DNA of 64,000 bases from a virus: positions 1 to 64,000 of the IMG/VR virus record IMGVR_UViG_3300040802_000094; one strand, 5' to 3'. This document shows positions 10,428 through 43,352 of this stretch, piece by piece. Position numbers and translations under genes: made by a program. Every line of letters begins with the position of its first letter. Position 1 is the stretch's first letter. Below the pieces are notes generated by a model. It saw only the letters and a program-made list of their open reading frames with translations, made no database searches and was not told the DNA's origin.

Positions 10428-10791
10428 CGTTCAAAGGGTTGTTTCCGAGCTCTTCCGCGATTTTACTCTCCCGGCCTCGGGGGCGATCGAGGCAAACGTT
10501 TCGAGGCACGAGAGGCTAAACATTTACGTGGTCGTTCTTTTGACCCACGATCGCGACATTTTTTGTGAATTCAAGCGCCGAAGAAACCAGTTGGTCGAGA
10601 TGTTTGAGTACTACTTAGATCCATTCAGTCTCGAAGTTTCGACGCGATCGGTTAGTATTGGCGACTACCAGCCGAACCGGACGCAAGGCGTCGTTGACGG
10701 GTTTATCACGACGAATGAAACGGAATATATCTGTTTTAGTTCGGAGGATACGTCGTGTGCCTGTCCTTCCTCATTGATGCGTTCCGAATAA
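10387..10791 (+). CDS. Hypothetical protein
   Basis: 134-aa ORF with AAGGA upstream; overlaps the 5' end of the divergent nuclease ORF. Confidence 0.5.
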   Translation: MAENLTTKSLFKVIVQRVVSELFRDFTLPASGAIEANVSRHERLNIYVVVLLTHDRDIFCEFKRRRNQLVEMFEYYLDPFSLEVSTRSVSIGDYQPNRTQGVVDGFITTNETEYICFSSEDTSCACPSSLMRSE

Positions 10792-10887
10792 TTTCATTCC
10801 TTTGGGGACTTTTTGTTTGCCTCTAGTCGATCGCAAGGCCGAGAGATAGAGATTCGATCGAAAAAAACTCTTATATTCCCCTGAAGG

Positions 10888-10945
10888 GACAATCAACTAA
10901 AAACCCGTTGCGACGTCGGTTGCAACGGGTTTTTAGTTGATTGTC
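10888..10945. terminator. Long inverted repeat (27-bp arms, one G-U)
   Basis: gacaatcaactaaaaacccgttgcgac-gtcg-gttgcaacgggtttttagttgattgtc. Confidence 0.7.
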
Positions 10946-11008
10946 GATGTTATCTTATGTCCTTTTCTAGCAATCTTATATGCTGTTGATGTAGTTAAGG
11001 GACAAAAA

Positions 11009-19789: not shown

Positions 19790-19827
19790 GCCCACCTAAA
19801 TTGCAGACGTCTGCAATTTAGGTGGGC
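19790..19827. promoter_or_regulatory. 38-bp perfect palindrome containing AATTGCAGACGTCTGCAATT (copy 1; parS/operator-like, may double as terminator)
   Basis: gcccacctaaattgcagac|gtctgcaatttaggtgggc. Confidence 0.75.
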
Positions 19828-19839
19828 TTTATTCTAGCC

Positions 19840-28574: not shown

Positions 28575-28647
28575 CAATGACTCATTTTATTGCCCTACCC
28601 CGGCTCGTTATTTTGCGAGCCGGGGTTTTGTCTTTGGATTTAAACTT

Positions 28648-30870
28648 ATGCCCGACGACGCTTTAAACCTTTCGGACAACGACCTAGGGGTTTTTCCTAT
28701 TCCGGCGCAATCGCCAGACGACGTGCGCGCCCTTCTCGCAGAAGAGCTGCAACTAGACCTACTGATCGCGCTGCGCAACCTACAGCAATCTCGTCCGCCC
28801 GCCGCCTGGATTCAAAGCCCCGGACTGCTCGAAGACGAAGGACTGGTATCCCTCAACGGACGAGCCATTTTCCCGATTTACCCCGCAAGGGAAGTGGCGA
28901 TCGATACTTCCGTCCAGATTCCCTTGCTTCCCGATGCGGTTGCCTCGGTCGTTCGAGAGGACTTCCTCTCCCTCGTGGCCGTCGTCGCAGAAGTAGGGGC
29001 GGAACAAGATCCCAACCTCGGCGACTTGACTTTTTACTACAACGTCGATCGCCCCGACGGATCGGTGGAGGTCGAGCAACGGACGAGTGAAAATGCCCGG
29101 AGACTTAGGGTCTTTCTGATCGTATTGCTATCCCCCCACTTTCCCACCAAGGAAAGTGTCAAGGCTTTGTTGAGGGCGCAGCACCCCGAAGACGTCGAAG
29201 ACGCCTATCACCTGACGATCGCCAACAAAGAAAAAGAAGGGTTCGCGATCGCCGATTCTCAGATATACGCTTTCGACCCGCACTTCCTCGAAAAGACCTA
29301 TCGCATTTTCCCCGACTACTTAGAATTTTTGGGGATTTGCAAGGTTCGGCGATCGAAAAATCATTCTACTGGCGGCTACATCCCCGACGACGGAATCAGC
29401 ATCCTCCCGTCGATCGAGCTGACGGATGACAATACGAACCTCATCGTCCGCCGACGCTGGATCGAACTTGCCACGGGCATGAATTTGGCGGGGGATTACT
29501 TGCTTTCGGTCAAGAATCTGATCCCCGGAGCGATTTCTCAGCACCAAGGGGCGGAGGGGGAAACGGCCATTTCCCCGAACGGAGCCGGGGTACTGGCCAA
29601 CGGCCAGAGGACCTCGTTTTCCAACCAGGCGATTTCGGATCGCCGTTCTTGTTTCAAGACGATCGCCACCAACGATGGGAACGATCGCCCGATCGTCGCG
29701 ATCGAGGTCAAACCTAACTCTCCTGTCGGGACGAGGTTCAGCGATCGATCGGAAATGCATCGAATTTACTCGATCGATGGAGTGGAGCAATCGAAGCTCG
29801 GTCGGTTCGCCCGTATTGGCGGGAGTCACGGCGTCCTTTCCTGGATCGGCGGCGAGTATTCGACGATCCGCCCGGGAGATCCGTGTTACTTCGCGCCTTG
29901 CATCAACTATCCTGCCGGATCCGGATTTTCCACTGCATTCAAGTCGGTCGAAAAAGTATGGTTTCACCTTCAAGAAATCCATTCCGACAATATTAGAGAT
30001 GCAAGCAAAAACGACGTCCTAGAATACGAAGATCCGGCTGGCGACGAAGACTACATCGTCGTCTGGTCTTGGGATCGGTCTGCAATTCACTATATTTACA
30101 AAAAAATAGAATTAACTGCGAATAGTTTTGGTGTTATTTTTGCGCCTTCCGAGATCGGAGGAAATATCGCTTTCATCGAGGGGATCCAGACCGACGGTCG
30201 GCATCGAATCGACGCCCCCGTGGCGAGGGGGCTGGTACCGAACCATACCTATCGATGCTTAGTCTATTACCCACCCAAGCCGGAAGACCTCTGGCAATTT
30301 CTGTTGAAGTATCCAAGGTATGAAGGAATCGGGAGAGAGGAACCCGATTTTTTGAACGGTGCGGAAATTATTTCCGATCCGATCCTGTTCGTCCATACCC
30401 AAGGGGGTGGCAATCTCGTCTATCGAGGGGATTCAACTTATCGGTATTCCCCGATCGCCCGCTACCTTCCTCGTCTGTCGGAAAATATTCCCTACCCCGA
30501 CCACTCGCTCTACGGGCCGATTCATTTCTTCGGTGCGAACTACCCGGGACCCGTTACTTGGGACGAGGCGCAGATCCAGGCAGCACCCGGAGTCGCACTG
30601 CCGATGCTCGGCCAAACCTTGGCGACATTTTCAAGGCAAAACGTTCACGAGCGATCGCTCAATGTCGCCCTCGCTTTCGGCGGCAACGTCTTGGGTTTCC
30701 GTACTCCCTCGATGGCGCACGACCATCCCTTTCAGAGCGTGCTGATCTTTGCGGTTAAGAAGGAAAATGCAGTGCGCGTGGCGATCGCCACGCACAATAA
30801 CGTTGGGGGGCAGACGGCGAAGCTCGATACGGATCTCGGTACGGCTATTGATATCTTTAAATTGGTGTGA
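28648..30870 (+). CDS. Large hypothetical protein, probably virion structural
   Basis: 740-aa ORF heading an operon of fibre-like and lysis genes. Confidence 0.7.
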   Translation: MPDDALNLSDNDLGVFPIPAQSPDDVRALLAEELQLDLLIALRNLQQSRPPAAWIQSPGLLEDEGLVSLNGRAIFPIYPAREVAIDTSVQIPLLPDAVASVVREDFLSLVAVVAEVGAEQDPNLGDLTFYYNVDRPDGSVEVEQRTSENARRLRVFLIVLLSPHFPTKESVKALLRAQHPEDVEDAYHLTIANKEKEGFAIADSQIYAFDPHFLEKTYRIFPDYLEFLGICKVRRSKNHSTGGYIPDDGISILPSIELTDDNTNLIVRRRWIELATGMNLAGDYLLSVKNLIPGAISQHQGAEGETAISPNGAGVLANGQRTSFSNQAISDRRSCFKTIATNDGNDRPIVAIEVKPNSPVGTRFSDRSEMHRIYSIDGVEQSKLGRFARIGGSHGVLSWIGGEYSTIRPGDPCYFAPCINYPAGSGFSTAFKSVEKVWFHLQEIHSDNIRDASKNDVLEYEDPAGDEDYIVVWSWDRSAIHYIYKKIELTANSFGVIFAPSEIGGNIAFIEGIQTDGRHRIDAPVARGLVPNHTYRCLVYYPPKPEDLWQFLLKYPRYEGIGREEPDFLNGAEIISDPILFVHTQGGGNLVYRGDSTYRYSPIARYLPRLSENIPYPDHSLYGPIHFFGANYPGPVTWDEAQIQAAPGVALPMLGQTLATFSRQNVHERSLNVALAFGGNVLGFRTPSMAHDHPFQSVLIFAVKKENAVRVAIATHNNVGGQTAKLDTDLGTAIDIFKLV

Positions 30871-32525
30871 TCATGAGCGACATTCAAGAGTCAATTAATT
30901 TCGCGATCGCTGGAGGATCTCTCAGTCTGATCGGGGATTACAACCCGACGTTTTCTCGTCCGTCGGCAATTTTCATGGAGTTGGAGGTTGGGGCGGACAC
31001 GTCATTTCTTCCAGTCCGTTCCGGAGAGCCTGCCGTCTACGACGACGGCTCGGTACTGATCGAGCCGGAATCAAAAAATTTCTTACCTTGGAATATCGGA
31101 CTGGAGCGCCCCAATTGGTACAAGGGGAGCAATATTATCGTCCGCGCCAACCTCAGCAACGACAGCACTTCCCGGAGGGAGGGCGATCGCATTGCCGCCC
31201 TTTCTCCGAGCTATCCGCCTTCGACCCCAGAAGAAAGAGCGCAGCAGTCGATCCGGCAAGAGATAGATCTTACGGCAGGGGTTTATACGATTTATGCCTC
31301 CCTTAGCTTGAAGAATGGGATGTTCGGTGTGGCGGACGCTCTACGCTTGGTTGCGGGAGAGCGGGTTCTCGGTTCCGTTCAGTTGAACGAATTGAACGAC
31401 TACCTGGACAAAAATCGGATTGTCGAATTCCAGGCCGAGGTGTCGGAAGCCGATTCGGGACTGTACTTGGAACTGTATATCGAGAATGCAGTGACGCTCC
31501 ACTGGCGAGGCGCGCAAGTTGAGAACAAGCCTTTCCGGTCTTCCTTGATTTACCAGCACGTCACTCCGGAGACGCGATCGCCGACGGTCCTTCGCTACAA
31601 CCGCAACCCGATTTCCGGCCTCAATACTTTTGGACTGTTTTGTCACCTCAAGTATTGGAGGGGCGACGGCAATATTGCCAAATTTGGCAATCTTCACGCT
31701 TACATTGAGGGCGATTACTTAAAAGTAAAGGCCGGATCTTTGACGATCGAGTGTCCGGAGATCTTGCCGAAAAAGGATCTCCGTTTTTTCGTTCAAGTAT
31801 CGTCGGAAGCGCAAACGATCGCCCTGTACCTGAACGAAACACTCGTGGCAAAAGGGGCAATCCAGGGGTTCCGTCCCAGCCAGGATTCGGTAATCTTTGA
31901 TTCGGAAGGGGTGCGCTGCCTGTCTTCCTGCTTCACGACGACTCGATTGATGAGTGACGGGCAAATCGCGATCGGCGAAGTTGCCTTGGAAGACGTCAAA
32001 AACCTATTCATTCCCGACATTATCTCGTTCGAGCTGATGTCGGTTCAGTCCTCGATGCTGCTCCTGAATCCGATAACGATTCCGGCTGCCGCGACCGATC
32101 CGGACGTCGATCTCTTGATCCCCGGGTATGCGAGCGTTCGCCTGCCCTTTATCGCCAGCGACGCCCAGCCGATTCTCGACATTTTACCGGACGACAAAGT
32201 CAGAATTTCTTCGACTTTGAGTTTTGAGGTAGGGATGGCGATCGTTACGTCGCCATCGTTTTCGATCGAGGTAGAGGTGGTCGAAAACGACAGGCTGTCC
32301 AACGTCCTGACGCTTTCCTCTGCAGCATTTTTGAATGTCGGCGACACGATCGCCCAAGCAAAAGCCCAGACGGAAGTAGAGGTCGATCCTCAAAATTACT
32401 ACGTAGATCTGCTCGCTAGCGCCCCTGGAGTCAAGATTGCGCAAAAGTATATCAACGGCTTCATTCTCTCGAATCAAAATACCGAACCCAAGACCGTTTC
32501 CCCTTCAATTTATATCAAGCACTAG
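30867..32525 (+). CDS. Spike/fibre protein with carbohydrate-binding and LamG-like domains
   Basis: LIEPESKNFL and GAQVENKPFRSSLI motifs of phage spike-fibre domains; IALYLNETLV. Confidence 0.65.
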   Translation: MIMSDIQESINFAIAGGSLSLIGDYNPTFSRPSAIFMELEVGADTSFLPVRSGEPAVYDDGSVLIEPESKNFLPWNIGLERPNWYKGSNIIVRANLSNDSTSRREGDRIAALSPSYPPSTPEERAQQSIRQEIDLTAGVYTIYASLSLKNGMFGVADALRLVAGERVLGSVQLNELNDYLDKNRIVEFQAEVSEADSGLYLELYIENAVTLHWRGAQVENKPFRSSLIYQHVTPETRSPTVLRYNRNPISGLNTFGLFCHLKYWRGDGNIAKFGNLHAYIEGDYLKVKAGSLTIECPEILPKKDLRFFVQVSSEAQTIALYLNETLVAKGAIQGFRPSQDSVIFDSEGVRCLSSCFTTTRLMSDGQIAIGEVALEDVKNLFIPDIISFELMSVQSSMLLLNPITIPAAATDPDVDLLIPGYASVRLPFIASDAQPILDILPDDKVRISSTLSFEVGMAIVTSPSFSIEVEVVENDRLSNVLTLSSAAFLNVGDTIAQAKAQTEVEVDPQNYYVDLLASAPGVKIAQKYINGFILSNQNTEPKTVSPSIYIKH

Positions 32526-32534
32526 GAGGTCGAG

Positions 32535-32954
32535 ATGCCCGATCAGAATCTAGATCTGTATCCGGAGGACTTTCCAGATACTCTCAATACGGATTTAACA
32601 GTAGAACAAACCTTAATCCTCCACGCTTGGAGGATCCGTCGGCTGCAATCCTTTCGGATCCAGGGAGGGGCGATCGAGCTGTCTGCGTTGATCTCCGGAC
32701 AGAACTTGAACGTCTATACCTCGAACGAGAGGCTCCCCTCCCTCCCCCAGATGATTTCTGAAAATAACATCCTCGCGGGGGAGGAGGGCGATCGCCTCCT
32801 TCAGGAAAAAAGATACCTCTCCTTGCAGGAGAGCCAAGTAGGGACGGCAACTACCATTTTGGAGATGCAGTCCACGATCGCCCAGATGAGTCAAGAGATT
32901 TCGGATCTGCGGACGTTGATTTACGAAATCACGGGTTCCGCCATCGATAACTAA
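32535..32954 (+). CDS. Hypothetical protein with C-terminal coiled coil
   Basis: RBS AGGAGG; 139 aa. Confidence 0.7.
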   Translation: MPDQNLDLYPEDFPDTLNTDLTVEQTLILHAWRIRRLQSFRIQGGAIELSALISGQNLNVYTSNERLPSLPQMISENNILAGEEGDRLLQEKRYLSLQESQVGTATTILEMQSTIAQMSQEISDLRTLIYEITGSAIDN

Positions 32955-32970
32955 AGGATGCTGCGCCACC

Positions 32971-33186
32971 ATGGCACTAGAACAAAAAATTACAGAGTTG
33001 ATCTCGGCGACCAGCCATCTTGTCGCCGACGGCAAGAAAAATCAAGAAGCGGCGATGTCTAGCGCTCAAAAAGCACTGGCACAAATCACCGCACTGGAAC
33101 GTAGAGTCAAGGCGATCGAGGAGGCGATCGACAAAGCCAAAACGATGGAAGAGTTGAAGCGAATGGTAGAAAAAGGAGGCGCGTAA
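32971..33186 (+). CDS. Small coiled-coil protein
   Basis: 71 aa heptad pattern, in operon. Confidence 0.7.
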   Translation: MALEQKITELISATSHLVADGKKNQEAAMSSAQKALAQITALERRVKAIEEAIDKAKTMEELKRMVEKGGA

Positions 33187-33189
33187 TCG

Positions 33190-33957
33190 ATGGGTATCTT
33201 TGTCGAACCCCTGCCGAAATCTCACTGTCTCTTCAAGAAAAGGCCGTTATCGAGCGTGTCGATTCCCGGGGAGACGGTAAGAATTGAGGAAAAGGTGGAA
33301 ATCTCCGAGTACTCCCTTCCTCCCGAGCGAAAGCACATTCGTGTCCGATGGAAAAATCTCGATTGGTTCGTTTTTGCCGAACATTGTCAGATCTTCGACG
33401 GAGGCAAAAAGGTTTGGCCGGAAGAGGTTCCGAGTAAGGTTTGCCTGGATCTCCCTTATTTGTCTCAGCTCGACAATTACGAAAATCCGACGGGTTCGTG
33501 CAACGTCACGAGCATGGCGATGTGCTTCCGCTACTTTGGGGTCGAGAGAGACCCGAATTATTCGAGATTTTCTCAGCTCGAAGACGAACTTTATAACGTG
33601 ATGCTCGATTGCGGGCGATCGCGGCATTCGCCCCAAGATCTCAAGTGGCTTGCCGAGCGTTACGGCATCGACGATCGCTTTACGGTGAAGGCCACCCTCC
33701 AAGAAGTAAAAACCTGGCTGGCAAATGGAAACCCCGTCGTCGTCCACGGCTACTTTACGAGCTTCGGCCATATTATTGCCATCAAGGGGTATGACGACGT
33801 CCTCCAATCCTTCGTCGTCAACGATCCGTATGGCGAGTATTTCGATTCGGGATACCGCACGGATCTCACTGGGGAATCTCTCAATTATTCGTACGATCTA
33901 ATCCGAAGAACGTGCATGGATGACGGAGATTTCTGGGTTCATTTTTTATCCAAATAG
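33190..33957 (+). CDS. C39-like cysteine peptidase with SH3-like N-terminal domain; putative endolysin
   Basis: PYLSQLDN...GSCNVTSMAM (Cys), FGHIIAIKGYD (His), VNDPYG (Asp); RBS AGGAGG. Confidence 0.85.
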   Translation: MGIFVEPLPKSHCLFKKRPLSSVSIPGETVRIEEKVEISEYSLPPERKHIRVRWKNLDWFVFAEHCQIFDGGKKVWPEEVPSKVCLDLPYLSQLDNYENPTGSCNVTSMAMCFRYFGVERDPNYSRFSQLEDELYNVMLDCGRSRHSPQDLKWLAERYGIDDRFTVKATLQEVKTWLANGNPVVVHGYFTSFGHIIAIKGYDDVLQSFVVNDPYGEYFDSGYRTDLTGESLNYSYDLIRRTCMDDGDFWVHFLSK

Positions 33958-33986
33958 AATAATTACGATCGCAGAAAGGGTGCGAG

Positions 33987-36413
33987 ATGTTTCGACTGAA
34001 GTCTAATTTACATAATTCGAGATTCAGGCGATGGTTTCCCACCGTCTTTCGGTTGATAGACGCGATCGACTACTGGCACTGGTGGCATTTTCGTCACGTC
34101 GAAGACATTAGGGCGGGGCTAGATACGGTTCCCGCCGTATTTGTTCTGTGGAGCAAAAACGAGGGCGTTCGACAATTAAATAACGAATACCTCGCCTCTT
34201 TTTCGGAAGAGTGGGGAACTCAGTTCTCCGAGTTATTTGATATCTCGGAACAAATTCAGCAGTTTCGAGACTCGCCTCGCCAGGAAATTGTTTACGACGT
34301 TTCCTTTCCGATGAACGATGGCAAGTCAAAAGTCGATTATATTTTCTTCTTCCGGAAGTACGATCGCGGCAACAAGATCATTGCGGTAGGACTCGATATT
34401 TCCGATCAAAAAGTTGTCGAGCGGGAGCTTAAGAATGCCTATTCCCAGCAAAAAACAATCCAAATTATTTTAAATCGCATCCGAACGTCTTTAGAGATAG
34501 AAGAAACGCTGCAGCTTGCCTGCGAAGAGGTTCGCAAGGAGTTGAGCTGCAGTCGCGTAGTGATCTATCAGTTCAACTCCAGTTATTCGGAGGGATGGGT
34601 ATGTTCGGAATCGATCGACGACAAAATTGGCTCGATTCGCGGGAGGGATTTGGAAGACCCTTGTTTTAACAAGGTTGCCAAAGAATATATTCGGAAAGGC
34701 TTTGCCGTATGCAGCGACGTTCGGAATACGCAAAGTTGCTACAAAGAAATGCTGCTCGGACTCAACGCCAAGTCCAGTCTCACGGTGCCGATCATGGAGG
34801 AAGACAAGTTGTGGGGGCTGATGGCGTGCCACCAACAAGAGCCGTTCTATTGGGACGAAAGGGCGATCGTTTTAGTTAGGGAAGTTTGTCGCCAGCTTCA
34901 AATTGCGGTACAGCAGCACAAGCTTTACGAACAATTGCGCTTGCGCGAGCAACAACTCAAGGTAGATCTGCAGCGAGAGCAGCTTTTACTGGAAGACGGC
35001 TTGGTTGGAGTTTTGAGATTGAAGTGGAATAAATCTCAAGATTTCACGATCGGCTACGTTCAAAATTCAGAGCAGTTTTTTCGCAGCTCTTCGAGCGCGA
35101 TGTCCGGAAAGAATTTCTTGGACTTTATTCACCCCCAAGACCGAGATACTTTCCTCGCGGTTTGCGAGGCGATCGTTTCCGGGACGACGGGAAATGACGA
35201 TATTTTTTACCGAGTTGTCGATGCGAACAGGCAAATAAAATGGGTTTATAACTTCGTTCGTGTCGCCAGAGCGCACGAAGCGGAAATTGAGATCGACGGC
35301 TACATCGTTGACGTGACGAGCTACAGGCAGGCCGAAGAACGGGCGAAACTACTCGTAAGCTCTTTACCCGTATTCATTTTCGCGATCGACAAAGAGAATC
35401 GATTCGCCCTTTGCGAAGGAAGGAATATCCGGGGAATCCCTTCTCAAATCGTCGGGCAAAACGTGATTGAGGTTTACGCCAATCTCAACTGCTTTGAGGT
35501 TGGCGAGGCGATCGAAGCGGCTAGGGCGGGAGATCCCCTCAAAAAGACCTTCAACTTGAACGGTCAGTTTTATCGCCATTACTTTACGCGATCGGAAAAC
35601 GAAGAATCCGTCTTGGGAGTCGCTTTCGACGTGACGGACTTGACGATCGCCCAGCTCGCCCTAGAGAAAGCGAGTCAAGAAATGGAGGCATTCTTGCATT
35701 TCACGTCTCACGACTTGCAGGCTCCCTTGCGAACCGTATCGAATTACCACAAGCTATTTCTACGTCACCTTCAAAAGCAATACTCGCTGACGCCGGAGGC
35801 CGACCCCGTACTTTCGAGTCACACCGAAAAAATCCAAGCATCCCTGGAGCGGGAACGTCGGTTGATCGAGGATCTCCTGGCTTTTTCGAGAATCAACCGG
35901 GTCGAGTCCGACATCGAACTTCTCGATCTGAACGAAATTTTAAACTCCGTAAAAGCCGTCCTCGCCGATCGCATTACCGAAAATAGAGCCACAATCTTTT
36001 GCAGGCAAACCCTGCCGACGCTGTGGGGCGATCGCACTCAAATCGAGTCGGTATTCCAAAACCTGTTAAGCAATGCGATTAAATTCCAAAGGCCGGATCT
36101 AGACCCCGAAATACGAATCGAATGCGAAGAAAGGCTTCTCGACGGGGAGCGCGCGTGGTACTTCCGGTGGATCGACAACGGTATCGGCATCGCCCCCTTG
36201 GACGGCAGCAAAACCTTCGAGGAAGCGGCGGAAGCTATCTTTTCCCCGTTCAAAAAAATGCATTCTTCCTCCTATTCTGGGACGGGGATAGGGCTTGCCG
36301 TCGTCAAAGCCGTCATCGAAAAACACCGAGGTAAGGTGTGGGCTTCGGAGAACCCTTCGGGGGGGACCATTTTTCACCTGCATCTCCCAGAAGGAAAGGG
36401 GAGGGAGGTATGA
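33987..36413 (+). CDS. Cyanobacteriochrome-type sensor histidine kinase (PAS-GAF-PAS-PAS-HisKA-HATPase)
   Basis: GAF: RVVIYQF...SESI...DPCF...SCY...LTVPI...LWGLMACHQ; PAS: IHPQDR...IKWV; H-box SHDLQAPLR; N-box QNLLSNAIKF; DNGIGI; GTGIGLAVVK. Confidence 0.92.
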   Translation: MFRLKSNLHNSRFRRWFPTVFRLIDAIDYWHWWHFRHVEDIRAGLDTVPAVFVLWSKNEGVRQLNNEYLASFSEEWGTQFSELFDISEQIQQFRDSPRQEIVYDVSFPMNDGKSKVDYIFFFRKYDRGNKIIAVGLDISDQKVVERELKNAYSQQKTIQIILNRIRTSLEIEETLQLACEEVRKELSCSRVVIYQFNSSYSEGWVCSESIDDKIGSIRGRDLEDPCFNKVAKEYIRKGFAVCSDVRNTQSCYKEMLLGLNAKSSLTVPIMEEDKLWGLMACHQQEPFYWDERAIVLVREVCRQLQIAVQQHKLYEQLRLREQQLKVDLQREQLLLEDGLVGVLRLKWNKSQDFTIGYVQNSEQFFRSSSSAMSGKNFLDFIHPQDRDTFLAVCEAIVSGTTGNDDIFYRVVDANRQIKWVYNFVRVARAHEAEIEIDGYIVDVTSYRQAEERAKLLVSSLPVFIFAIDKENRFALCEGRNIRGIPSQIVGQNVIEVYANLNCFEVGEAIEAARAGDPLKKTFNLNGQFYRHYFTRSENEESVLGVAFDVTDLTIAQLALEKASQEMEAFLHFTSHDLQAPLRTVSNYHKLFLRHLQKQYSLTPEADPVLSSHTEKIQASLERERRLIEDLLAFSRINRVESDIELLDLNEILNSVKAVLADRITENRATIFCRQTLPTLWGDRTQIESVFQNLLSNAIKFQRPDLDPEIRIECEERLLDGERAWYFRWIDNGIGIAPLDGSKTFEEAAEAIFSPFKKMHSSSYSGTGIGLAVVKAVIEKHRGKVWASENPSGGTIFHLHLPEGKGREV

Positions 36414-36475
36414 CAAACATCCCGATTCCTCCGAGGAAACGCAGATTCGATCGCTAGTTACTTGAGAGTCTCTTT

Positions 36476-36886
36476 ATGCTCAAAATTCTTTACATAGAAG
36501 ACTCGGAGGACGACTATGAATTCTTCAAAATTGCCTTTGAAGGAAAGGCGGATGTCGAGTGGGAGGAAAGTGCGAGGTTCGCCCTCGACTCGCTCAAGCA
36601 AAGGAGAGTCGCGGACTATCCTGACTTGATCTTTCTCGATTTAAATTTAATCGGCATTTCCGGACTTGAGTTCTTAGAACTGCTTCCCCGAGAAGCCCCT
36701 TACGTCCTCGCCAAAGTGCCGATCGTTATTTTTACCTCAAGCGCGTATTATAACGATATCGACATGGCTTACCTACATCGAGTCTCCAGCTATATCAGAA
36801 AACCCCTGGACATAGACGAACTTTGCGATTGCGCTGAAGTGGTCTGCCAGTTTTACGGGCAAACCTGCATTCTTCCCACAAAATGA
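36476..36886 (+). CDS. Single-domain response regulator, Rcp1-like
   Basis: ILYIEDSEDD, PDLIFLDLNL, PIVIFTSS, SYIRKP. Confidence 0.92.
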   Translation: MLKILYIEDSEDDYEFFKIAFEGKADVEWEESARFALDSLKQRRVADYPDLIFLDLNLIGISGLEFLELLPREAPYVLAKVPIVIFTSSAYYNDIDMAYLHRVSSYIRKPLDIDELCDCAEVVCQFYGQTCILPTK

Positions 36887-37788
36887 CCAATACTGAATCC
36901 GTAATTCACCTTATCGAAGATTCGGACAGCGATGCCGACGTTGCCGAAATACTTTTGAATGAGGCGGGGTTTAGGGTGTTTCGATATCCGACGCTTTCAA
37001 AGGAACGACTGATCCGCAATATCGAAAAATATCCGGAGACGAAGCACATCGTTTTGTTGGACTTATTCGGAGTTTCCCCGGAGTCGCCAAAGGAAATCAT
37101 TGAAAACGTTCAAGGATGTTTCCAGTCGCGCCAGGATGTCGATATCGAAATTGTCGTCCTTTCTGGCGGATCGAGTCCCGAACTTGTTCAGATGGTGAAG
37201 TCCCACGGGTTGCAGTTTCTGTCGAAAAATGAAGCCCTCGACCCCGACACCGACACCTTGGCGGTCAACCTCAAGCAAATCCAACAAGATCGGGGAATTG
37301 AAAAAAGTATATGGATACTGGAATCGAAGCTAGATCAACTGCATTTGAGGCACCAGATGGCGGTCGATCGCTTCTCTCAGGAAATCGGCTCGATTCAAAC
37401 CGCCTACCAGGAAGTTCACCGACTGGTGTATAGCTTGGAAGCAAGACAGAATCGCGACGAAAGCGATCGCCTCGCCGGAGGGCAAAATGTCGAACGACAC
37501 CTCAAAGGACTGGAGGTCAAAATTCAGGAACGAATCGATCGCATCCAGGAAAATTCCGAAGCGACGAAGGTTTTACAGTACCTCGTCCCTCTCGCCGCTC
37601 AATTCCGGCATAACCAAATTGGAGAAGACGAATTCAGGGCGATGGCTCAAGCCATTCGCTCGATCGTATTGATCAAAAAAAATCCCAAAAAGGCGATCGG
37701 GTTGGCCCTCCTGTTCCTGACACTAATGGCGAGCGCCCAGGATCGAATTGTCGCCCTCCTTCGTATGGTATTTGAGATTTTTAAGTAG
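36883..37788 (+). CDS. Response regulator: receiver plus coiled coil plus C-terminal hydrophobic segment
   Basis: IHLIEDSDSD, IVLLDL, VVLSG, FLSK; C-terminus KKAIGLALLFLTLMASA; ATGA-coupled. Confidence 0.85.
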   Translation: MTNTESVIHLIEDSDSDADVAEILLNEAGFRVFRYPTLSKERLIRNIEKYPETKHIVLLDLFGVSPESPKEIIENVQGCFQSRQDVDIEIVVLSGGSSPELVQMVKSHGLQFLSKNEALDPDTDTLAVNLKQIQQDRGIEKSIWILESKLDQLHLRHQMAVDRFSQEIGSIQTAYQEVHRLVYSLEARQNRDESDRLAGGQNVERHLKGLEVKIQERIDRIQENSEATKVLQYLVPLAAQFRHNQIGEDEFRAMAQAIRSIVLIKKNPKKAIGLALLFLTLMASAQDRIVALLRMVFEIFK

Positions 37789-38105
37789 ACTTAATTTTGG
37801 GGACTTGTACTGTCTGTCCGGAATGGAGATCCCAAATTGTCGTGCGGTTGTAAAGCAAAAATCGTTTGTAGCGATCGCCGGGAAATTTATTTTTCTTCAA
37901 AAAAAGTGGAAGGGGATCTCGATACGATCGCAATTCCGCCTCTCGGTAGCGGGGAAGCTTGAAGGGAGGACGTCGATTTAATCGCTCCCAGAAAGGGGTT
38001 GAGGGGTTGGCCATTTTGTCGAGCTATCGTGCTATCCTAAAATCTGAGCGATCGCTATTCGAGCCGAGAGCGATCGCTCTTCACAAAATAGTATTACAAA
38101 ACCGT

Positions 38106-38140
38106 AAAGCGCGGGGACGTTGCAGTCCCCGCGCTTTTTT
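38106..38140 (+). terminator. Terminator-like hairpin just upstream of the head operon
   Basis: aaagcgcggggac-gttgca-gtccccgcgctttttt. Confidence 0.7.
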
Positions 38141-38154
38141 GTTTGGAGCGAGTT

Positions 38155-39861
38155 ATGTCCGATCAATTCATCGAAGCCATCGGCAAAACCCTCAGCCAGA
38201 AAAATGTTTCGCGACTCAAGGAAATTTGGTCGTCGCTTACTGAGCTGCTGGCGAGTACGGGAAACCTCGAAATAGAAGATCTACCAAAAACTTTAATCGA
38301 CCCGCAATCTCAATACGACCTTCACAATATGGAAGGAGAGATTGCCGCTTCCGGGCGAAAAGGTATTGATGTCGGCGCGCAACTCGAATGTACGGCGTGG
38401 GCTGCAAAAGTCAACAGGCTCGCCGACATTTTCGCTCTTTTGTTGCGTACTTATCCTAGGGTATTCAAATACGAACAAGAGGGTGAAGCCGAATTCGAGC
38501 CTCCCGAAGAACGGCTCAGCCGACTGCTGAAGGAGATAACGGACGCCGCTTTTTTGCTTTGTAAGGAAAAACCAGACACCCGCTCAAATGCGGATATTTA
38601 TGCGAGTTCGGGAGAGGGAGAAAAAGAAGACTTCGGCGATCCTTCAATATCCAAGGCCGAAGGGGAAACGGAGTCCGAAAGTACTTCGGATGTCGAGACC
38701 GAAACCTTGATGGCAAGAGATCTCGCGGAAGCCGAAGGCGAGGTTCGCGAAGTTTTCAATATTGAAATTGCCGCGCGAGCGATGCCGACCGCCAAGAAGG
38801 CCGCCAACGAAAGGCCGATCGACGGAATCCTCTTCCAGGTCGATCGGCCCAGCGAGGCAATTCCGGAAGTGGGGCCCGGCTTGCCCCTGTTGATTCCGAA
38901 AGAGGTCGCCCTGGCGGCGATCGCGGACATCACCCCCGGGAAACCAAAACCCTTGGACGCGCACGACACCTTCGCCCGCCATTCCAACCGAGATATTGTC
39001 GGCGCCATGACCAGCGCCTACCTCGAAGGAGACGACCTCGTCGTCCAGGGAGTCCTTTGGGATTACAACCAGCCGGACAAGATTCAGGCGATCGGCCAGG
39101 AGACACAGCGTCTCGGCATGTCCGTCAATGCGACAGCCGACGGACATGTCGCCGAGTGGGGCGGAACGAAAGTCTGGCAGGTAGATCGCCTGCAGATCTT
39201 GGGTGCAAACATCTTGTTTTCGGATAAAGCGACTTTCAAGCGGACGCGGATTATTCGCGCGATCTCGAAATCTTCTTTGGGGGATTTCGAGCAGCCGATC
39301 GCGGCGCGGGCGGAAGATTCGCCGGACTCGGAAGACCTGCCTTTAAACAAAACCTTCGACCCAGAAGAGGACACCATGAGTAACGAAGCAATTTCACAGC
39401 AAATACAAGTGATCGCAAGCTCAGTCAAGGAAGTTCAGACGATCTTCGCCCAGGAACTGGAAGCGTTGCAGGAAGCCGTCCGAGACCTGAGTACGCAAGT
39501 CTCGGATATCCAGTACGAACGGGAGCAAAGTCAGAGTTCGATCCAGGCTGCCGCGCAAGAAGAAGCCAAGCAGAAAGAAAGAGAGGATTTGCTGGCATCG
39601 ATCGCCGAAGTCGTTGACGCAAAACTGGCGAATCTTCCCGGTCCTCGGCGAGCGGGCTACAGCATTCCACTTGCCGCGTCGAGTCCGCCTTCGGCAACGG
39701 CTGGCGATCGGAAAATGGAAATCCAACTGCAATTGAGCAAGTTAAACGGACAGATTGAGGTAATGCAGCGAGATCCCAATATGTCCGGCTCTCCAGAAAT
39801 CATTTCGTTGATCGACAACCGTCGCCAGCTCGTCGCCCAACTAGAATCCTTCGCCAACTAA
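38155..39861 (+). CDS. Prohead protease-scaffold protein
   Basis: Directly upstream of capsid; central domain H...IVGAM...LVVQGVLW...LGMSV...GANIL; acidic coiled-coil C-terminus; repeated [IL]xA[AS] sites. Confidence 0.7.
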   Translation: MSDQFIEAIGKTLSQKNVSRLKEIWSSLTELLASTGNLEIEDLPKTLIDPQSQYDLHNMEGEIAASGRKGIDVGAQLECTAWAAKVNRLADIFALLLRTYPRVFKYEQEGEAEFEPPEERLSRLLKEITDAAFLLCKEKPDTRSNADIYASSGEGEKEDFGDPSISKAEGETESESTSDVETETLMARDLAEAEGEVREVFNIEIAARAMPTAKKAANERPIDGILFQVDRPSEAIPEVGPGLPLLIPKEVALAAIADITPGKPKPLDAHDTFARHSNRDIVGAMTSAYLEGDDLVVQGVLWDYNQPDKIQAIGQETQRLGMSVNATADGHVAEWGGTKVWQVDRLQILGANILFSDKATFKRTRIIRAISKSSLGDFEQPIAARAEDSPDSEDLPLNKTFDPEEDTMSNEAISQQIQVIASSVKEVQTIFAQELEALQEAVRDLSTQVSDIQYEREQSQSSIQAAAQEEAKQKEREDLLASIAEVVDAKLANLPGPRRAGYSIPLAASSPPSATAGDRKMEIQLQLSKLNGQIEVMQRDPNMSGSPEIISLIDNRRQLVAQLESFAN

Positions 39862-39866
39862 GAACT

Positions 39867-40979
39867 ATGGGTATTTCTTTTGCCTCGCCACAAATGGCGC
39901 AAAGGCTGGATTCGTTCGGATTCCAGCGCTCTTACGACTTACAAGCAGCCGCAACTCGACTCGACGGATCTTTTCTGACCCATCGGGACGACTTCATGTC
40001 AACGATCGGACACTATATCAGAAACAGTCAGGACGTCCGGCTGTGGAAGATGATCCGGAAGGAGTTGGCGGAAGCGGATCTGAACAGAGAGGCTATCGAG
40101 GGACAGGATCCCGAGTCCGGCTTCATGAGCAAGAACAACATGAACCCTCCCGTCAACGACGTCGCAAATCCGGCGTCGCACGATTTAAGCGATCCGGGTC
40201 AACTCAATAAAGCGATCGGAGGAATCATCCAGACCGGGCATTATACCGAAAGTATGTGGAGGCAGCAGGGCAAGCCCTACGGAAATCAGCTCTCCGATCG
40301 CACGATGAAGCTGATCAGCTCGATGGTCAAGAATGTCGAGCGCGCTTTATTTCGGGGCAATGCCACGACAAACCCCCTCGAATTTAACGGACTGGAGCAG
40401 CAAATGGATCCCACCCATTTGTTCGAGGCGGATATTACGGCAGGTGACTCGGTAGTCAAGAAGTTGCGAGGGATCGTCCGCCTGTCAATATCCGACGAAA
40501 CGATCCTGAGATCGGTCACGCACATCTTCACGACAGCGTTGGGCGTCCAGCTTCTCGAAGACGAGACAGACATGAAGCTGGAATACCACAACCTCGATCG
40601 CGTTTCTCCGGGGCTGTCGGTTCCGTCGATCGTCACACATCGCGGGCTGATGCCTATCGTGGACTCCCCCTTCCTTCGGGACGAGAAAGGGGCGACCGAC
40701 GCCGACCCCGACTATATTGACTACTGGCTGCTCGACATTAATTCGCTGTGCTGGAAAGGGGTTATTCCGAAAGGGGCGAACGTATCCAATCCCAACAGCC
40801 CTTCCCCGTCGGATTTCGACCCGCAGATTTTCGACATCACGCGATACACCGGAATGGGCGACTTGATGGTCGAAACCCGTATCGGCCTGATGTATGGCAC
40901 GCTATATGCCAAAAACAGAGGACAGGGGATTTGGAAATTGAGAGTTAAAGTTCCGCCGCTAACCGTCGCTTCAATTTAA
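39867..40979 (+). CDS. Major capsid protein (HK97 fold)
   Basis: 370 aa; VERALFRGNATTNPLEFNGL motif; position after scaffold. Confidence 0.85.
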   Translation: MGISFASPQMAQRLDSFGFQRSYDLQAAATRLDGSFLTHRDDFMSTIGHYIRNSQDVRLWKMIRKELAEADLNREAIEGQDPESGFMSKNNMNPPVNDVANPASHDLSDPGQLNKAIGGIIQTGHYTESMWRQQGKPYGNQLSDRTMKLISSMVKNVERALFRGNATTNPLEFNGLEQQMDPTHLFEADITAGDSVVKKLRGIVRLSISDETILRSVTHIFTTALGVQLLEDETDMKLEYHNLDRVSPGLSVPSIVTHRGLMPIVDSPFLRDEKGATDADPDYIDYWLLDINSLCWKGVIPKGANVSNPNSPSPSDFDPQIFDITRYTGMGDLMVETRIGLMYGTLYAKNRGQGIWKLRVKVPPLTVASI

Positions 40980-40983
40980 GTAA

Positions 40984-41460
40984 ATGTCTCTCGTCCGATC
41001 GACGCCCAAGTGGGCTGCCAACCAAATCCAAGTTCCGGGAGTCGGGAGGGTTTTTCGCCCGGTCTCCAACGCCATCGTTACGATGCCCGACGAAGTTGCC
41101 GCGTGGCTGGCGGAAAATGGGTTCGTCGAAATTGTCGGCGGCCTCCCGTCACCCCCTCCGGGGATACCCCGCTCCGTCAAAAAGGAAGGAGGGCGATCGC
41201 CGGATCCTCCTCTCGGTTCGTCACCTCCACCTTCCCCCATGCAAGAAGGATCCGGCGAGGAGACGTGGAAGTCTCTTTTGTTGGAGTATCTAGAACGGTC
41301 TCCCGCAGAGGAGATCATTGAGAATGTTCGGGGAATCGGTCGGGAAACGGCGGAAGCGATCGCCGACCTCCCAAGGCCGCTAACCTGGGAATCGGTCGAG
41401 TCCGTGCTGAAACCCGCACAAATCCGAAACTTGAAAAAATTCTTAGGAGAGGAGGAGTGA
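40984..41460 (+). CDS. Capsid-adjacent protein with helix-hairpin-helix motif
   Basis: ENVRGIGRETAEAI; proline-rich linker. Confidence 0.65.
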   Translation: MSLVRSTPKWAANQIQVPGVGRVFRPVSNAIVTMPDEVAAWLAENGFVEIVGGLPSPPPGIPRSVKKEGGRSPDPPLGSSPPPSPMQEGSGEETWKSLLLEYLERSPAEEIIENVRGIGRETAEAIADLPRPLTWESVESVLKPAQIRNLKKFLGEEE

Positions 41461-41996
41461 TGCCACTCATTACGTCTCACGTCAGCCAGTCCCTCGGGGC
41501 GATCGCTCAGTCCTTGATCGAAACGAAACCCAAATTAATCGCCGCGACGGTTCGGAGGAAGGCGGAAGCTTTCTCCTACGAGGCCGGACAGGCGGTTGTT
41601 CCGTCGGAAGCGAAACTCCTGACTTTTGCGCGGTGTATCCCCGAAGGGGGGAACTCGCTCCTTCTTTCAGCTCAGTTAATTTCCAAGAAGGGGTTTTCCG
41701 GAAAGCTGCTCTTGTTTTCTGGATGCCCGTCGCCCCCCGAAGACGGGAAGGCGGTTGACCCTTCCCGGGACGACATTCGGAAGTTCCTATTTTCTGTCGA
41801 TTTCTCCGACCCTCTCGCCAAGGTAGAAGAGATCGGAGAGTTTCAGTCAATTGAGGTCGTTTCCCACAAAATTGCGGAAAGCGCCGATCGAAACTTGTAC
41901 GGAATTCTCGTCGCGAAAGAGCCTTACGCGGCGATCGCCGAAGAAGAGTTCCTCATCCGGCTTGGCTTCTTTCCCAGAGAACTCAGGATGATCTGA
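41457..41996 (+). CDS. Hypothetical virion protein
   Basis: 179-aa ORF within the head operon, RBS GAGGAG. Confidence 0.65.
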   Translation: MMPLITSHVSQSLGAIAQSLIETKPKLIAATVRRKAEAFSYEAGQAVVPSEAKLLTFARCIPEGGNSLLLSAQLISKKGFSGKLLLFSGCPSPPEDGKAVDPSRDDIRKFLFSVDFSDPLAKVEEIGEFQSIEVVSHKIAESADRNLYGILVAKEPYAAIAEEEFLIRLGFFPRELRMI

Positions 41997-42002
41997 TTTG
42001 TT

Positions 42003-42638
42003 ATGCCTTACCTAACCCCAGAAGAAGCCCGAGATCGCCTGCTCTCGTCGGGGAGGTACGAAGAAAGTACCCTCCCCGACGCAGGCGTACTCGGGCTTTT
42101 GCTGGAGGATATCGAAGAACGCATCGATACTTGGCTGGGATACCACGCGCCTCTAACGGATTACGTAGAAGAATACCGAGTCGATCCGAAAGGGGTCGTC
42201 GTCCTGTCTGGCTTCCCCGTCGCCTCAGTACGACAAGTAGAAATACTTTACGGGATCGAGACGAACAATGCGGAGCAGTCTCCAACCGAAATAGTCACTT
42301 CCGGCTATTGGCTTCGCGGCAATATCGTCGGACTCGGGGGCTGTCCCGGCGATCGCGTCCGGATCTCCTATTCCGCAGGACTAGATCCGCTACCCACCCG
42401 TTTTAAATTGGCCGCGTACAGGCTGTTGCTCGAAGTTTTGGAGAAAGACGGGACGAGTGGCTCTACCGATTCTTTGGACGCGATCGCCCGTCCCGTCACT
42501 TCGCTGTCCGTCCCCGGAATTTCCAAATCTTTCCAGCTCGGGAAAGACCCCGATAGCGGCAAGCCTTTTGGCGAATTCAAGCGGATCGACGAAATCTTGA
42601 GTCGGCTCAAAACCGATCGGAGAAAATTCTTATGGTAA
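42003..42638 (+). CDS. Head-tail connector/adaptor protein
   Basis: MPYLTPEE...IDTWLG...PVASV...VRISYSAG...LPTRFKLA. Confidence 0.8.
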   Translation: MPYLTPEEARDRLLSSGRYEESTLPDAGVLGLLLEDIEERIDTWLGYHAPLTDYVEEYRVDPKGVVVLSGFPVASVRQVEILYGIETNNAEQSPTEIVTSGYWLRGNIVGLGGCPGDRVRISYSAGLDPLPTRFKLAAYRLLLEVLEKDGTSGSTDSLDAIARPVTSLSVPGISKSFQLGKDPDSGKPFGEFKRIDEILSRLKTDRRKFLW

Positions 42639-42919
42639 AAGAAAAGTCAATTTTTAAATCTAAAACCTTATGGGTTTCGGTTCTTACTTTTTGTTACGGG
42701 ATCATGCCCGTCCTTCAGGATGCCTCCGCGACAGAAAAATTTACGCCCGCCCACCTTTTCGAGATTTTCAATTTTGCCGTACTGATGGGCGCGACGATTT
42801 TGACGCGATACCAGGGGAACAGTTCCGTCCTCTTTACACCAAAGGGGTTGCCCGGGATCGACCCGGAGCAGGCCAAGTACATGGCCGAAGTTTTCAATCA
42901 ATCCATGAAAAATGAGTGA
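42632..42919 (+). CDS. Holin-like membrane protein (2 TM)
   Basis: KSIFKSKTLWVSVL N-terminus typical of small phage holins; two hydrophobic segments. Confidence 0.6.
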   Translation: MVKEKSIFKSKTLWVSVLTFCYGIMPVLQDASATEKFTPAHLFEIFNFAVLMGATILTRYQGNSSVLFTPKGLPGIDPEQAKYMAEVFNQSMKNE

Positions 42920-43343
42920 TTTGATTTCCTCGGAAGACTTTCTCGAACTCGCAAAAGAGATGAACCACGACATTCGGATTTATCAACGTCGCGAGACAAA
43001 GTCCGGCGATCGCCGATTGGGATTTCGCGACGACTACGAAGTTCGAGGGCGATCGATCCGAGGATTCATTTCTCCCCGAAAAGAAATAGGCGTCGCGATC
43101 CTCGGAGGCATCGAGTCTTCGACAGATTTGACGGCATACGTTACGGATCTCGACTTCCGGAGTTCCGACGTCACTCCGGAAACGAGAATTGCGGAACACA
43201 ACGTCTACGGCGGCCAGCTATTTCGGGTCAAGTACAAAGGGTACAAGAATGCGGCAAAATACCACGAATTGGAGTTGCTGCAATTGCCAGAAGAATCCGA
43301 CTTCACCAGCGATCGTGCGGGTGAAGTCCTTCATTTAGGCTAG
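42912..43343 (+). CDS. Putative head-closure protein
   Basis: 143 aa beta-rich ORF after the connector. Confidence 0.5.
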   Translation: MSDLISSEDFLELAKEMNHDIRIYQRRETKSGDRRLGFRDDYEVRGRSIRGFISPRKEIGVAILGGIESSTDLTAYVTDLDFRSSDVTPETRIAEHNVYGGQLFRVKYKGYKNAAKYHELELLQLPEESDFTSDRAGEVLHLG

Positions 43344-43352
43344 GAGGAGTAC

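Follow-up and report, generated by a model that had tools for sequence, protein, structure and literature searches.

A putative two-component module with a cyanobacteriochrome-type sensor kinase in a tailed phage from a microbial mat

Does a tailed phage of cyanobacteria encode its own light sensor, and what would such a sensor control? The question is raised by a histidine kinase gene and two receiver genes that follow a peptidase gene on a virus record. The original prediction took them for a photoreceptor cassette attached to the lysis gene, a candidate switch of lysis or late development. To our knowledge, the light dependence of cyanophage infection is known only via host photosynthesis and host regulators. 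If functional, the kinase would be the first phage photoreceptor kinase. The virus itself would then perceive its light environment by means of a sensory module of a class new to viruses, and it would become a testable question which phage decision depends on light. The sensor domain is a very divergent dual-cysteine GAF with a short cysteine spacing, and may also interest engineers of bilin-based optogenetic tools.

Phage contig and borders of the cassette

The window is the whole stretch analysed, 64,000 nucleotides from the start of an 85-kb IMG/VR phage record of microbial mat origin (IMGVR_UViG_3300040802_000094). Judged by its gene content, the contig is a genuine tailed phage. Capsid, connector and tail genes lie on one contig, as in Caudoviricetes: an SU10/HK97-type major capsid protein (39867–40979, plus strand; Atlas score 0.98–0.99, TM 0.83 to SU10_MCP clusters, mostly viral; phrog_212, 7e-5) 2 kb downstream of the cassette, a head-tail adaptor (42003–42638) and a Tail_P2_I baseplate protein (19822–21843). 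Terminase and portal genes were not found within the 85 kb of the record, the completeness of which is 45% by CheckV. The genes upstream of the cassette, described earlier as fibre genes, gave no family match in profile searches.

The open reading frames of the cassette were verified, with coordinates and placement as claimed. The first encodes a C39-like papain-fold cysteine peptidase of 255 aa (33190–33957, plus strand; Peptidase_C39_2, PF13529, E 7e-21) with Cys104, His194 and Asp212; it also matches phrog_29753 (5e-29) and phrog_10051, 'endolysin' (4e-19). It is probably a cell-wall hydrolase. Its family was found by tblastn in 78 GenBank phage records, all cyanophages, and is confined to cyanophages within the GenBank phage collection; some of the records label it endolysin. 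The kinase gene starts on the same strand after a gap of 29 nt, as predicted. Downstream of the cassette, a 13-bp G+C-rich inverted repeat followed by a T run on the plus strand (38106–38137) is read as an intrinsic terminator. This strong putative terminator sets the cassette apart from the head genes, so that membership of the late operon is not upheld.

The cassette appears, from assembly and composition, to be neither a chimera nor a recent insert. A single DNA contig covers 28501–38994, and DNA contigs from a different assembler run through the cassette into its two flanks without a change in depth. The identical kinase is present on five other contigs and the identical product of the last gene (301 aa) on nine; the longest contig has 99,392 b. 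The tetranucleotide distance of the cassette from the whole contig is typical (z = −0.28; intron region about +3), and no IS-type flanking repeats were found around it, in agreement with the original prediction. HIP1 sites number 97 in the window against 2.6 expected; three are within the cassette, where they had been claimed, although the kinase gene, at 0.41 per kb, is poorer in them than the contig mean (1.66 per kb). The full-length protein closest to the kinase shares 31% identity with it over 21% of the query, and no near-identical cellular copy of the cassette proteins was found among billions of proteins. Phage-like composition and lack of a close homologue argue against a recent pick-up from a host.

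In two metatranscriptome libraries made from the same mat sample, contigs extend over 29806–34133, 30102–33887 (including the C39-like gene) and 38122–43584 (head genes). They leave 34242–38045 almost bare, with a summed depth of 0–1.9 against 11–16 in the flanks, at a flat DNA depth of about 8; as these data are contigs of one sample with possible DNA in the libraries, the bare stretch is not counted as evidence on expression.

Sensor kinase and its GAF domain

The sensor histidine kinase (808 aa, 33987–36413, plus strand) has a PAS-like N-terminus, a cyanobacteriochrome (CBCR)-type GAF domain, two PAS-like regions, HisKA and HATPase_c. Pfam domains are GAF (residues 169–309), PAS_3 (371–433, right at the cutoff), HisKA (567–637, 5e-7) and HATPase_c (681–802, 2e-22 over the full profile); the protein is thus of the HisKA class. 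In the PAS-GAF-PAS-PAS order proposed earlier, the GAF domain stands and one PAS domain is borderline; the other two PAS domains are recognised by end motifs only (DISDQK at 137, VDVTSY at 441, FDVTDL at 547). The kinase core (35685–36392, plus strand) bears His575 (codon at 35709–35711) within SHDLQAPLR, the N box NLLSNAIKF (692–700), the G1 box DNGIGI (730–735), the F box FSPF (752–755) and the G2 box GTGIGL (765–770). H, N, G1 and G2 boxes are intact, as predicted. Among solved structures, bacteriophytochrome kinases come closest to it (E 5e-29), and it is 36–42% identical to Cph1/BphP-type kinases from many phyla.

PAS_2 (PF08446) and PHY (PF00360) domains were not found flanking the GAF domain at E<0.01, whereas the bacteriophytochrome encoded on viral contig L009 shows both. 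The kinase is therefore not a Cph1-type phytochrome (PAS-GAF-PHY). The Cph1 analogy of the original prediction holds for the kinase core and the first receiver, which are of the phytochrome-associated class, but not for the sensor, which is of the cyanobacteriochrome type. Cph1–Rcp1, CphB–RcpB and bacteriophytochrome–receiver pairs share with the phage module a kinase core of the same class (SHDLQxPLR H-box) and a single-domain receiver; they differ from it in that the phage kinase carries a CBCR-type GAF domain between PAS-like regions, without PAS_2 or PHY, and is accompanied by an extra putative receiver fused to a coiled coil.

By sequence, the GAF domain (residues 143–328; 34413–34970, plus strand) has its neighbours among the dual-Cys DXCF cyanobacteriochromes (class definition from PMC11284453). 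The DXCF motif is D224-P-C226-F (34656–34667, plus strand) and the canonical cysteine is in Cys251-Tyr252 (34737–34742, plus strand). Matches to PDB sequences by phmmer are 6oap (7e-21), NpR6012g4 (1e-17), TePixJ (7e-15) and also miRFP670nano; in all four, a CH or CY dipeptide supplies the Cys that is aligned to Cys251. The AF2 model has a pLDDT of 93, and bilin-binding GAF domains make up all of the Foldseek matches listed (to rank 49), with TM up to 0.85. GAF fold, canonical Cys and Asp-Xaa-Cys-Phe of the DXCF lineage are all present. In the 100 nearest cellular domains the canonical site is Cys in 99 and both cysteines occur in 85. Family-conserved positions are kept at 46 of 65 sites, including R190, E208, H282 and W289, at no more than 41% identity to any of the 100 best-scoring related domains.

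The domain departs from its family in several respects. Where His usually adjoins the canonical Cys, the phage domain has Tyr252; as 44 of the 100 nearest domains and the bilin-binding miRFP670nano likewise have Cys-Tyr, this is regarded as a natural variant, not as a disqualifier. The Cys226–Cys251 spacing is 25 residues, not the usual 28, which is found in 173 of 198 dual-Cys relatives (range 26–38, none at 25 or below). The Arg of the family motif Y-x-Q-G-R is lost by one deletion. Positions conserved at 90% or more are altered (D189S, R287F, A263S), and Ile stands at site 214, where most relatives have an aromatic residue. The GAF domain of TePixJ (PDB 4GLQ, 3VV4, 2M7U) is of the same class and collinear with that of the phage: no net indels in the alignment, DPCF on DPCF, Cys251 on the canonical Cys. 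The phage domain differs in having Tyr in place of His after this Cys, a spacing of 25 instead of 28 and several conserved sites altered. The output of TePixJ is a chemotaxis transducer, that of the phage protein a histidine kinase.

Receivers and a second carrier

The first receiver (136 aa, 36476–36886, plus strand; PF00072, 6e-13) contains D9, D13, the phospho-acceptor D55, T87 and K109. Single-domain, Rcp-type, no output domain. Among solved structures it is closest to RcpB (E 1e-15); RcpA and Rcp1 also match, in accordance with the Rcp1-like receiver predicted. The gene of the 301-aa protein (36883–37788, plus strand) overlaps it by 4 nt. The protein has no Pfam match even at E<5, and a search of 5.8 billion proteins returned only itself. 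Residues 1–130 (36883–37272, plus strand) form a putative divergent receiver with E12, D13, D60, S94 and K115, followed by LDPDTDTL. Against a receiver profile, hhalign gives E 8e-5 with E12/D13, D60, S94 and K115 in register; the Atlas model of this part matches Response_reg clusters only (TM 0.71–0.77), and the AF2 single-sequence model has a pLDDT of 49. No DNA-binding domain was found in the 301-aa protein, as had been stated.

The remainder (37273–37788, plus strand) is a long helical, coiled-coil-like region with a C-terminal hydrophobic run; the protein is an orphan. The AF2 single-sequence model of the protein has helices at 124–300, at low confidence. The hydrophobic run comprises 15 residues (271–285; 37693–37737, plus strand) and is below the usual threshold for a transmembrane helix. 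No 19-residue window in the cassette reaches Kyte–Doolittle 1.6. The membrane anchor attributed to this protein accordingly reduces to this sub-threshold run.

Kinase core and second receiver were modelled together with ESMFold2. The ipSAE is 0.40 (runs 0.40, 0.43, 0.37) and that of the best of three controls 0.00; the runs share at least 68% of contacts, and the partner pLDDT is at least 80. Of 78 solved complexes, 51 attain this ipSAE mark, as do 2 of 108 mismatched pairs. Scores at or below 0.60 are rare in solved complexes (5 of 78), yet include all four passing mismatches (of 180), and solved kinase–receiver complexes exist, so that the pass may mirror likeness to them. The model therefore lends weak support to a pairing of the two. 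On sequence grounds, a complete and intact set of one kinase and two receivers, the second putative, carried by the phage is supported.

Relatives were sought for the whole cassette. Searches with the kinase in IMG/VR, with the capsid protein in GenBank phages and IMG/VR, with the cassette DNA against phages, and with the 301-aa protein and the first receiver among phages gave no useful relatives; the kinase and capsid searches yielded no related phage for a conservation check. A narrow family-alignment scan of IMG/VR recovered one locus only, a high-GC bacteriophytochrome. The kinase search of the GenBank phage collection gave one bona fide phage match, Microcoleus phage My-WqHQDG (E 2e-33); the other matches labelled 'phage' are host contigs or mislabelled bacterial DNA, e.g. 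MW462191 with PleC, PepN and GlnE.

The My-WqHQDG module (OR578706.1, 88856–91946) encodes a kinase, an Rcp-like receiver, a second receiver and a coiled-coil protein. As in the present contig, the order is GAF-PAS-HisKA-HATPase kinase, Rcp-like receiver, second receiver and coiled coil with hydrophobic helix, in tightly overlapping genes. The second receivers share VVL(S/T)G...L(D/E)PD(T/S)DTL and match locally (E 0.005). The N-terminus of the kinase matches a CBCR-GAF profile (hhalign probability 95%, E 4e-8). The coiled-coil protein ends in a C-terminal transmembrane helix. Differences are equally clear: the My-WqHQDG GAF domain lacks both cysteines, having neither DXCF nor the canonical Cys; second receiver and coiled coil are separate genes, here fused; the module is flanked by primase and helicase genes, among replication genes and not beside the C39-like gene, a homologue of which is on another genome fragment; and the genome is otherwise unrelated to the present contig. 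A common phage clade of the two kinase cores was rejected, as that of My-WqHQDG ranks 114th of 168 and is not the nearest relative. The gene-order parallel is newly recognised here. The shared order of the four parts points to a signalling module in circulation among phages that infect filamentous mat cyanobacteria; the two carriers known so far both infect cyanobacteria that glide and form mats (bioRxiv 10.1101/2023.04.12.536658). With a second, independent carrier, a single oddity becomes a candidate family of signalling modules among the phages of benthic mats, toxic Microcoleus mats included. The Cys-less GAF domain indicates that such a module can apparently do without covalent bilin.

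Proposed relay, rival readings and known viral sensors

The best explanation, given even chances, is a mat cyanophage with a long-resident three-gene two-component module, consisting of a kinase with a CBCR-type GAF domain and two receivers. The predicted parts are the GAF domain, the phytochrome-class core (His575), the Rcp-type receiver (Asp55) and the divergent receiver (Asp60) with its coiled coil and tail. The module would be read through from the side of the C39-like gene, stopping at the terminator that precedes the head genes. Inside an infected cell, the GAF domain would take up host phycocyanobilin on Cys251; Cys226 would give a short-wavelength photocycle, violet/blue versus green/teal. 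The light state would set kinase autophosphorylation, and phosphate would move to both receivers. Neither receiver has a DNA-binding domain, so that the output would be by protein contacts or at the membrane, not transcriptional. The module more probably controls how the host behaves, or its physiology, during infection than it controls lysis.

That the kinase is a working virus-encoded two-cysteine bilin photoreceptor, in a phage-specific four-part relay with a Cys-less form in Microcoleus jumbo phages, is a tentative reading; the phage would then sense the colour of light from within its host. Somewhat doubtful is its main rival, a working phage two-component system whose GAF domain no longer binds bilin and whose input is a small molecule, redox via the cysteines, or the PAS regions, reporting the metabolic state of the host. 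The shortened cysteine spacing, the altered conserved sites, the Tyr after the canonical Cys and the Cys-less counterpart in My-WqHQDG fit this rival, and CBCR homologues without bilin binding are known according to a passage of PMC12481020 that cites earlier work. Retention of both cysteines, of Asp and Phe of DXCF, and of H282 and W289 at such low identity to the best-scoring relatives argues for bilin binding instead, and Cys-Tyr is common among dual-Cys relatives. Action on host signalling is improbable: either host receivers of the Rcp/CheY kind would be targets of phosphorylation by the phage kinase, or the phage receivers would draw phosphate off host phytochrome-class kinases, with phototaxis, motility or acclimation reset. 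It is consistent with a kinase core and first receiver of the same class as those with which host phytochromes and CBCR kinases work, with receivers devoid of output domains and with the gliding, mat-forming hosts of both carriers; yet it is built on inference, and a complete kinase and receiver set needs no host partner.

A lysis gate, in which the 301-aa protein would be a phosphorylation-controlled holin, antiholin or membrane timer, is very unlikely. It was suggested by the 29-nt distance from the C39-like gene on the same strand, the endolysin label of that family in some records and the hydrophobic end of the 301-aa protein. However, the C39-like family occurs in 78 cyanophage records and the kinase in one bona fide phage of the same collection, in which the linkage is absent. 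No holin-like transmembrane protein was found near the cassette in a hydropathy scan, and the two small upstream ORFs have no transmembrane segment at threshold. A second endolysin-like candidate lies elsewhere (43353–44912), and the head genes lie beyond the putative terminator. With neither a transmembrane helix nor a conserved endolysin linkage, the cassette lacks the marks of a lysis timer, and the attachment to a lysis gene is not supported. Least probable of all are decaying passenger genes or host DNA mis-assembled onto a phage, as a single lineage of metagenomic origin, the incomplete contig and the low HIP1 density of the kinase gene might suggest; against them stand three intact ORFs with all catalytic residues, typical composition, bridging contigs of even depth from another assembler and the lack of a near-identical cellular copy. 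The favoured reading remains the resident module with a CBCR-type sensor.

The claim that no phage photoreceptor kinase is known needs qualifying where viruses at large are concerned. Phaeovirus EsV-1 encodes a phytochrome (PMC4525182), and the hybrid kinases of EsV-1 and FirrV-1 have a phytochrome-class GAF domain with Foldseek TM of 0.72–0.76 to the present model; these are brown-algal giant viruses with canonical phytochrome-type hybrid kinases, neither CBCR nor phage. Stand-alone CBCR-like GAF folds were reported from phages in 2025 (PMC12481020). Several of these, which include CrV-01T ORF 65, are Foldseek matches of the present model. Unlike the present kinase, they are small, stand-alone proteins with an N-terminal transmembrane helix and without kinase or receivers; they are recognisable mainly by structure, with 7–16% identity to the present GAF domain, whereas the latter matches CBCRs by sequence. 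Clostridioides phage phiCDHM1 is also reported to carry a sensor histidine kinase, of the quorum-sensing (agr) class and without a photosensory domain (PMC3901668).

Candidate photoreceptor kinase and its GAF domain

The cassette (33190-37788, plus strand) is, judging by sequence, a candidate phage-borne photoreceptor relay of the cyanobacteriochrome (CBCR) kind in a new place: a known kind of signalling system, here in varied form within a phage genome. In cyanobacteria, signalling through a CBCR kinase and Rcp-type receivers is standard. The observation behind the original prediction is confirmed, as are the positions of its four open reading frames. Its interpretation is right in part: the assignment to the Cph1 type and the tie to lysis and the late operon are not supported.

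The 808-aa kinase (33987-36413) starts 29 nt after the C39-like peptidase gene and consists of GAF, PAS, HisKA and HATPase_c; of the proposed PAS-GAF-PAS-PAS arrangement, Pfam shows the GAF and a single PAS. His575 lies within SHDLQAPLR as predicted, and none of the boxes N, G1, F and G2 is damaged. Pfam found neither PAS_2 nor PHY in the kinase, which rules out a Cph1-type phytochrome.

By sequence the GAF matches CBCR GAFs (6oap, 7e-21; NpR6012g4, 1e-17; TePixJ, 7e-15; also miRFP670nano and AnPixJg2). In HMMER alignments its LEDPCF falls on IEDPCF of TePixJ, and Cys251 aligns with the chromophore-binding Cys in all five. Relatives number 7,739 among 1.84 billion representatives; 699 GAF domains were excised from the best 149. 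Of the 100 best-scoring among these domains, all but one carry the canonical Cys (99) and 85 carry both cysteines; the dipeptide at the canonical Cys is Cys-His in 48 and Cys-Tyr in 44, so that Tyr252 is a common natural variant. The AF2 model of the GAF (33 relatives as input) has pLDDT 93, and every PDB match listed by Foldseek (down to rank 49) is a bilin-binding GAF from a CBCR or a phytochrome. The second Cys defines the DXCF class, driving PCB-to-PVB isomerisation and reversible C10 ligation (PMC11284453). Three features count against this kind of sensor. Cys226-Cys251 spacing is 25; of 198 dual-Cys relatives, 173 have 28 and none has 25 or less. Arg of Y-x-Q-G-R is lost through one deletion, and 19 of 65 family-conserved positions are changed (e.g. 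D189S, R287F, A263S). Bilin binding is predicted to be slightly less probable than its absence.

In the literature, no phage was found to encode a CBCR kinase together with cognate receivers. Brown-algal phaeoviruses encode phytochrome-like kinases (PMC4525182). Phage proteins of 'CBCR-like GAF fold', reported in 2025, are stand-alone, highly divergent, without kinase output and with an N-terminal TM helix (PMC12481020); they share 7-16% identity with the present GAF. Among BFVD matches of the GAF model they are listed alongside T4-type holins (Serratia phage PS2 T holin, Proteus phage Stubb class III holin). Both groups are about 200 aa long. Given the shared list, the size and the TM helix, these published proteins may belong to the T-holin family and not be photoreceptors.

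Receiver and putative second receiver

The 136-aa receiver (36476-36886) has RcpB as its closest solved structure (1e-15); RcpA, Rcp1 and bacteriophytochrome-linked receivers are also matched. The gene of the 301-aa protein (36883-37788) shares 4 nt with the receiver gene. In this protein Pfam finds no domain, no homologue was found among the 5.8 billion proteins searched (orphan), and its AF2 single-sequence model is poor. Residues 7-128 align with a profile built from four receivers (E 8e-5), and the acidic pair, Asp60, Ser94 and Lys115 fall on the corresponding receiver sites. The Atlas model of residues 1-130 matches Response_reg clusters only (TM 0.71-0.77). Co-folded with the kinase core, this putative second receiver gives ipSAE 0.40 (best control 0.00). 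Among solved complexes 51 of 78 reached this mark, among mismatches 2 of 108; the range of 0.60 or less holds just 5 of the 78 solved complexes but all 4 passing mismatches (of 180). The runs share at least 68% of contacts, with partner pLDDT no lower than 80. The co-fold gives the receiver reading weak support, since kinase-receiver complexes have been solved and the pass may stem from likeness to them. Profile alignment, Atlas model and co-fold point to a putative receiver at the N-terminus. The remainder is helical, ending with a 15-residue hydrophobic run below the standard TM threshold.

Origin and second carrier

Recent pick-up from a host and assembly error are both rejected. For the full-length kinase, the best match after itself among 5.8 billion proteins has 31% identity across 21% of the query. 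The tetranucleotide make-up of the cassette resembles that of the contig at large (z = -0.28), in contrast to the group II intron region (about +3), and no repeats were found flanking the cassette. The kinase core has 36-42% identity to Cph1/BphP-type kinases of many phyla. A 10.5-kb contig from another assembler bridges 28501-38994 at even depth.

In 50,697 GenBank phage records the sole bona fide phage match of the kinase is Microcoleus phage My-WqHQDG (OR578706.1), a jumbo phage genome from benthic mat metagenomes (bioRxiv 10.1101/2023.04.12.536658). Its module (88856-91946) comprises four overlapping genes, encoding a 545-aa kinase (PAS, HisKA, HATPase_c), receivers of 138 and 171 aa, and a 179-aa protein. 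The kinase, annotated hypothetical, begins with hydrophobic segments and a degenerate, Cys-less CBCR-type GAF; this N-terminus (88856-89500) is blank in Pfam and matches a CBCR-type GAF profile by hhalign (probability 95%, E 4e-8). It lacks DXCF and has a 7-residue deletion at the canonical-Cys site, whereas the present GAF has both cysteines. The second receiver shares VVL(S/T)G...L(D/E)PD(T/S)DTL with the 301-aa protein. The 179-aa protein, which is helical and has a clear hydrophobic helix at its C-terminus, matches the last two-thirds of the 301-aa protein by architecture; no sequence match between the two was detected. From the shared motif and matching architecture, the 301-aa gene therefore corresponds to two adjacent My-WqHQDG genes, fused. 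The genomes have almost nothing else in common, and the two kinase cores do not pair as nearest neighbours; the module may have a single origin or may have been assembled twice.

Many other GenBank 'phage' matches of the kinase (Listeria, Staphylococcus, Enterococcus sets) were rejected as unannotated contigs of doubtful viral origin. MW462191.1, a 103-kb 'Bacteriophage sp.' record with PleC, aminopeptidase N, GlnE and HigB around the kinase, looks like bacterial chromosome. High-GC IMG/VR contig IMGVR_UViG_3300035696_002323 carries at 7278-9955 a canonical 749-aa bacteriophytochrome (PAS_2-GAF-PHY-HisKA-HATPase), then a receiver, near an AAA_25 protein. Apart from the present cassette, the LWGL..H GAF pattern turned up in IMG/VR at this locus alone, which could be viral or flanking host DNA.

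Peptidase neighbour and phage contig

The Peptidase_C39_2 protein (33190-33957; E 7e-21) has Cys104, His194 and Asp212. Its family occurs in 78 GenBank phage records, all 78 cyanophages (Synechococcus, Leptolyngbya, Arthronema, Microcoleus, Acaryochloris), annotated variously as endolysin, cysteine protease or carboxypeptidase. The kinase search of the same records gives one bona fide phage, in which primase and PIF1 helicase genes flank the module and the C39 homologue is on a different genome fragment. The proposed attachment to a lysis gene is not supported. Adjacency to the peptidase is real, yet is the sole argument for a lysis link. No TM protein was found in or just upstream of the cassette. 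A G+C-rich 13-bp hairpin with T run (38106-38137) cuts the cassette off from the head genes, against its placement in a late operon.

The IMG/VR virus record is linear, 84,955 b, with CheckV completeness of 45%; the window covers its first 64 kb. Among its phage marker genes is a major capsid gene of SU10/HK97 type (39867-40979; phrog_212), with an Atlas score of 0.98-0.99 and a structural match (TM 0.83) to SU10_MCP clusters, most of them viral. Head-tail adaptor at 42003-42638, P2 gpI-like baseplate protein at 19822-21843. A single giant ORF, longer than 4,753 codons, continues past the contig end (L002:5742-20000, beyond the window; contig 69742 to end); giant ORFs occur in My-WqHQDG too (4,151 aa at 69922-82377). 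Most contig ORFs had no family in the family search. The HIP1 octamer GCGATCGC occurs 97 times in the window versus 2.6 expected, an excess that speaks for a cyanobacterial host. Public runs containing the stretch are only those of one microbial mat sample. C5 cytosine methylase, Endonuclease_NS (non-specific endonuclease), DndB-like protein and D12 adenine methylase (window 52-1077, 9585-12040; L002:666-1790) look like a DNA-modification or anti-restriction set. A group II intron (26229-28574) lies between tail-region genes, with a reverse transcriptase/HNH maturase ORF (26712-28508; phrog_1423, 1e-95) and Rfam Intron_gpII domain V-VI (28496-28574; 58 bits). Tetranucleotide make-up of the intron region is atypical (z about +3). 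RNA-library contigs over it reach a depth of 100-240 and have loose ends (26229, 26290, 28494), a sign that the sample may contain further copies or spliced forms.
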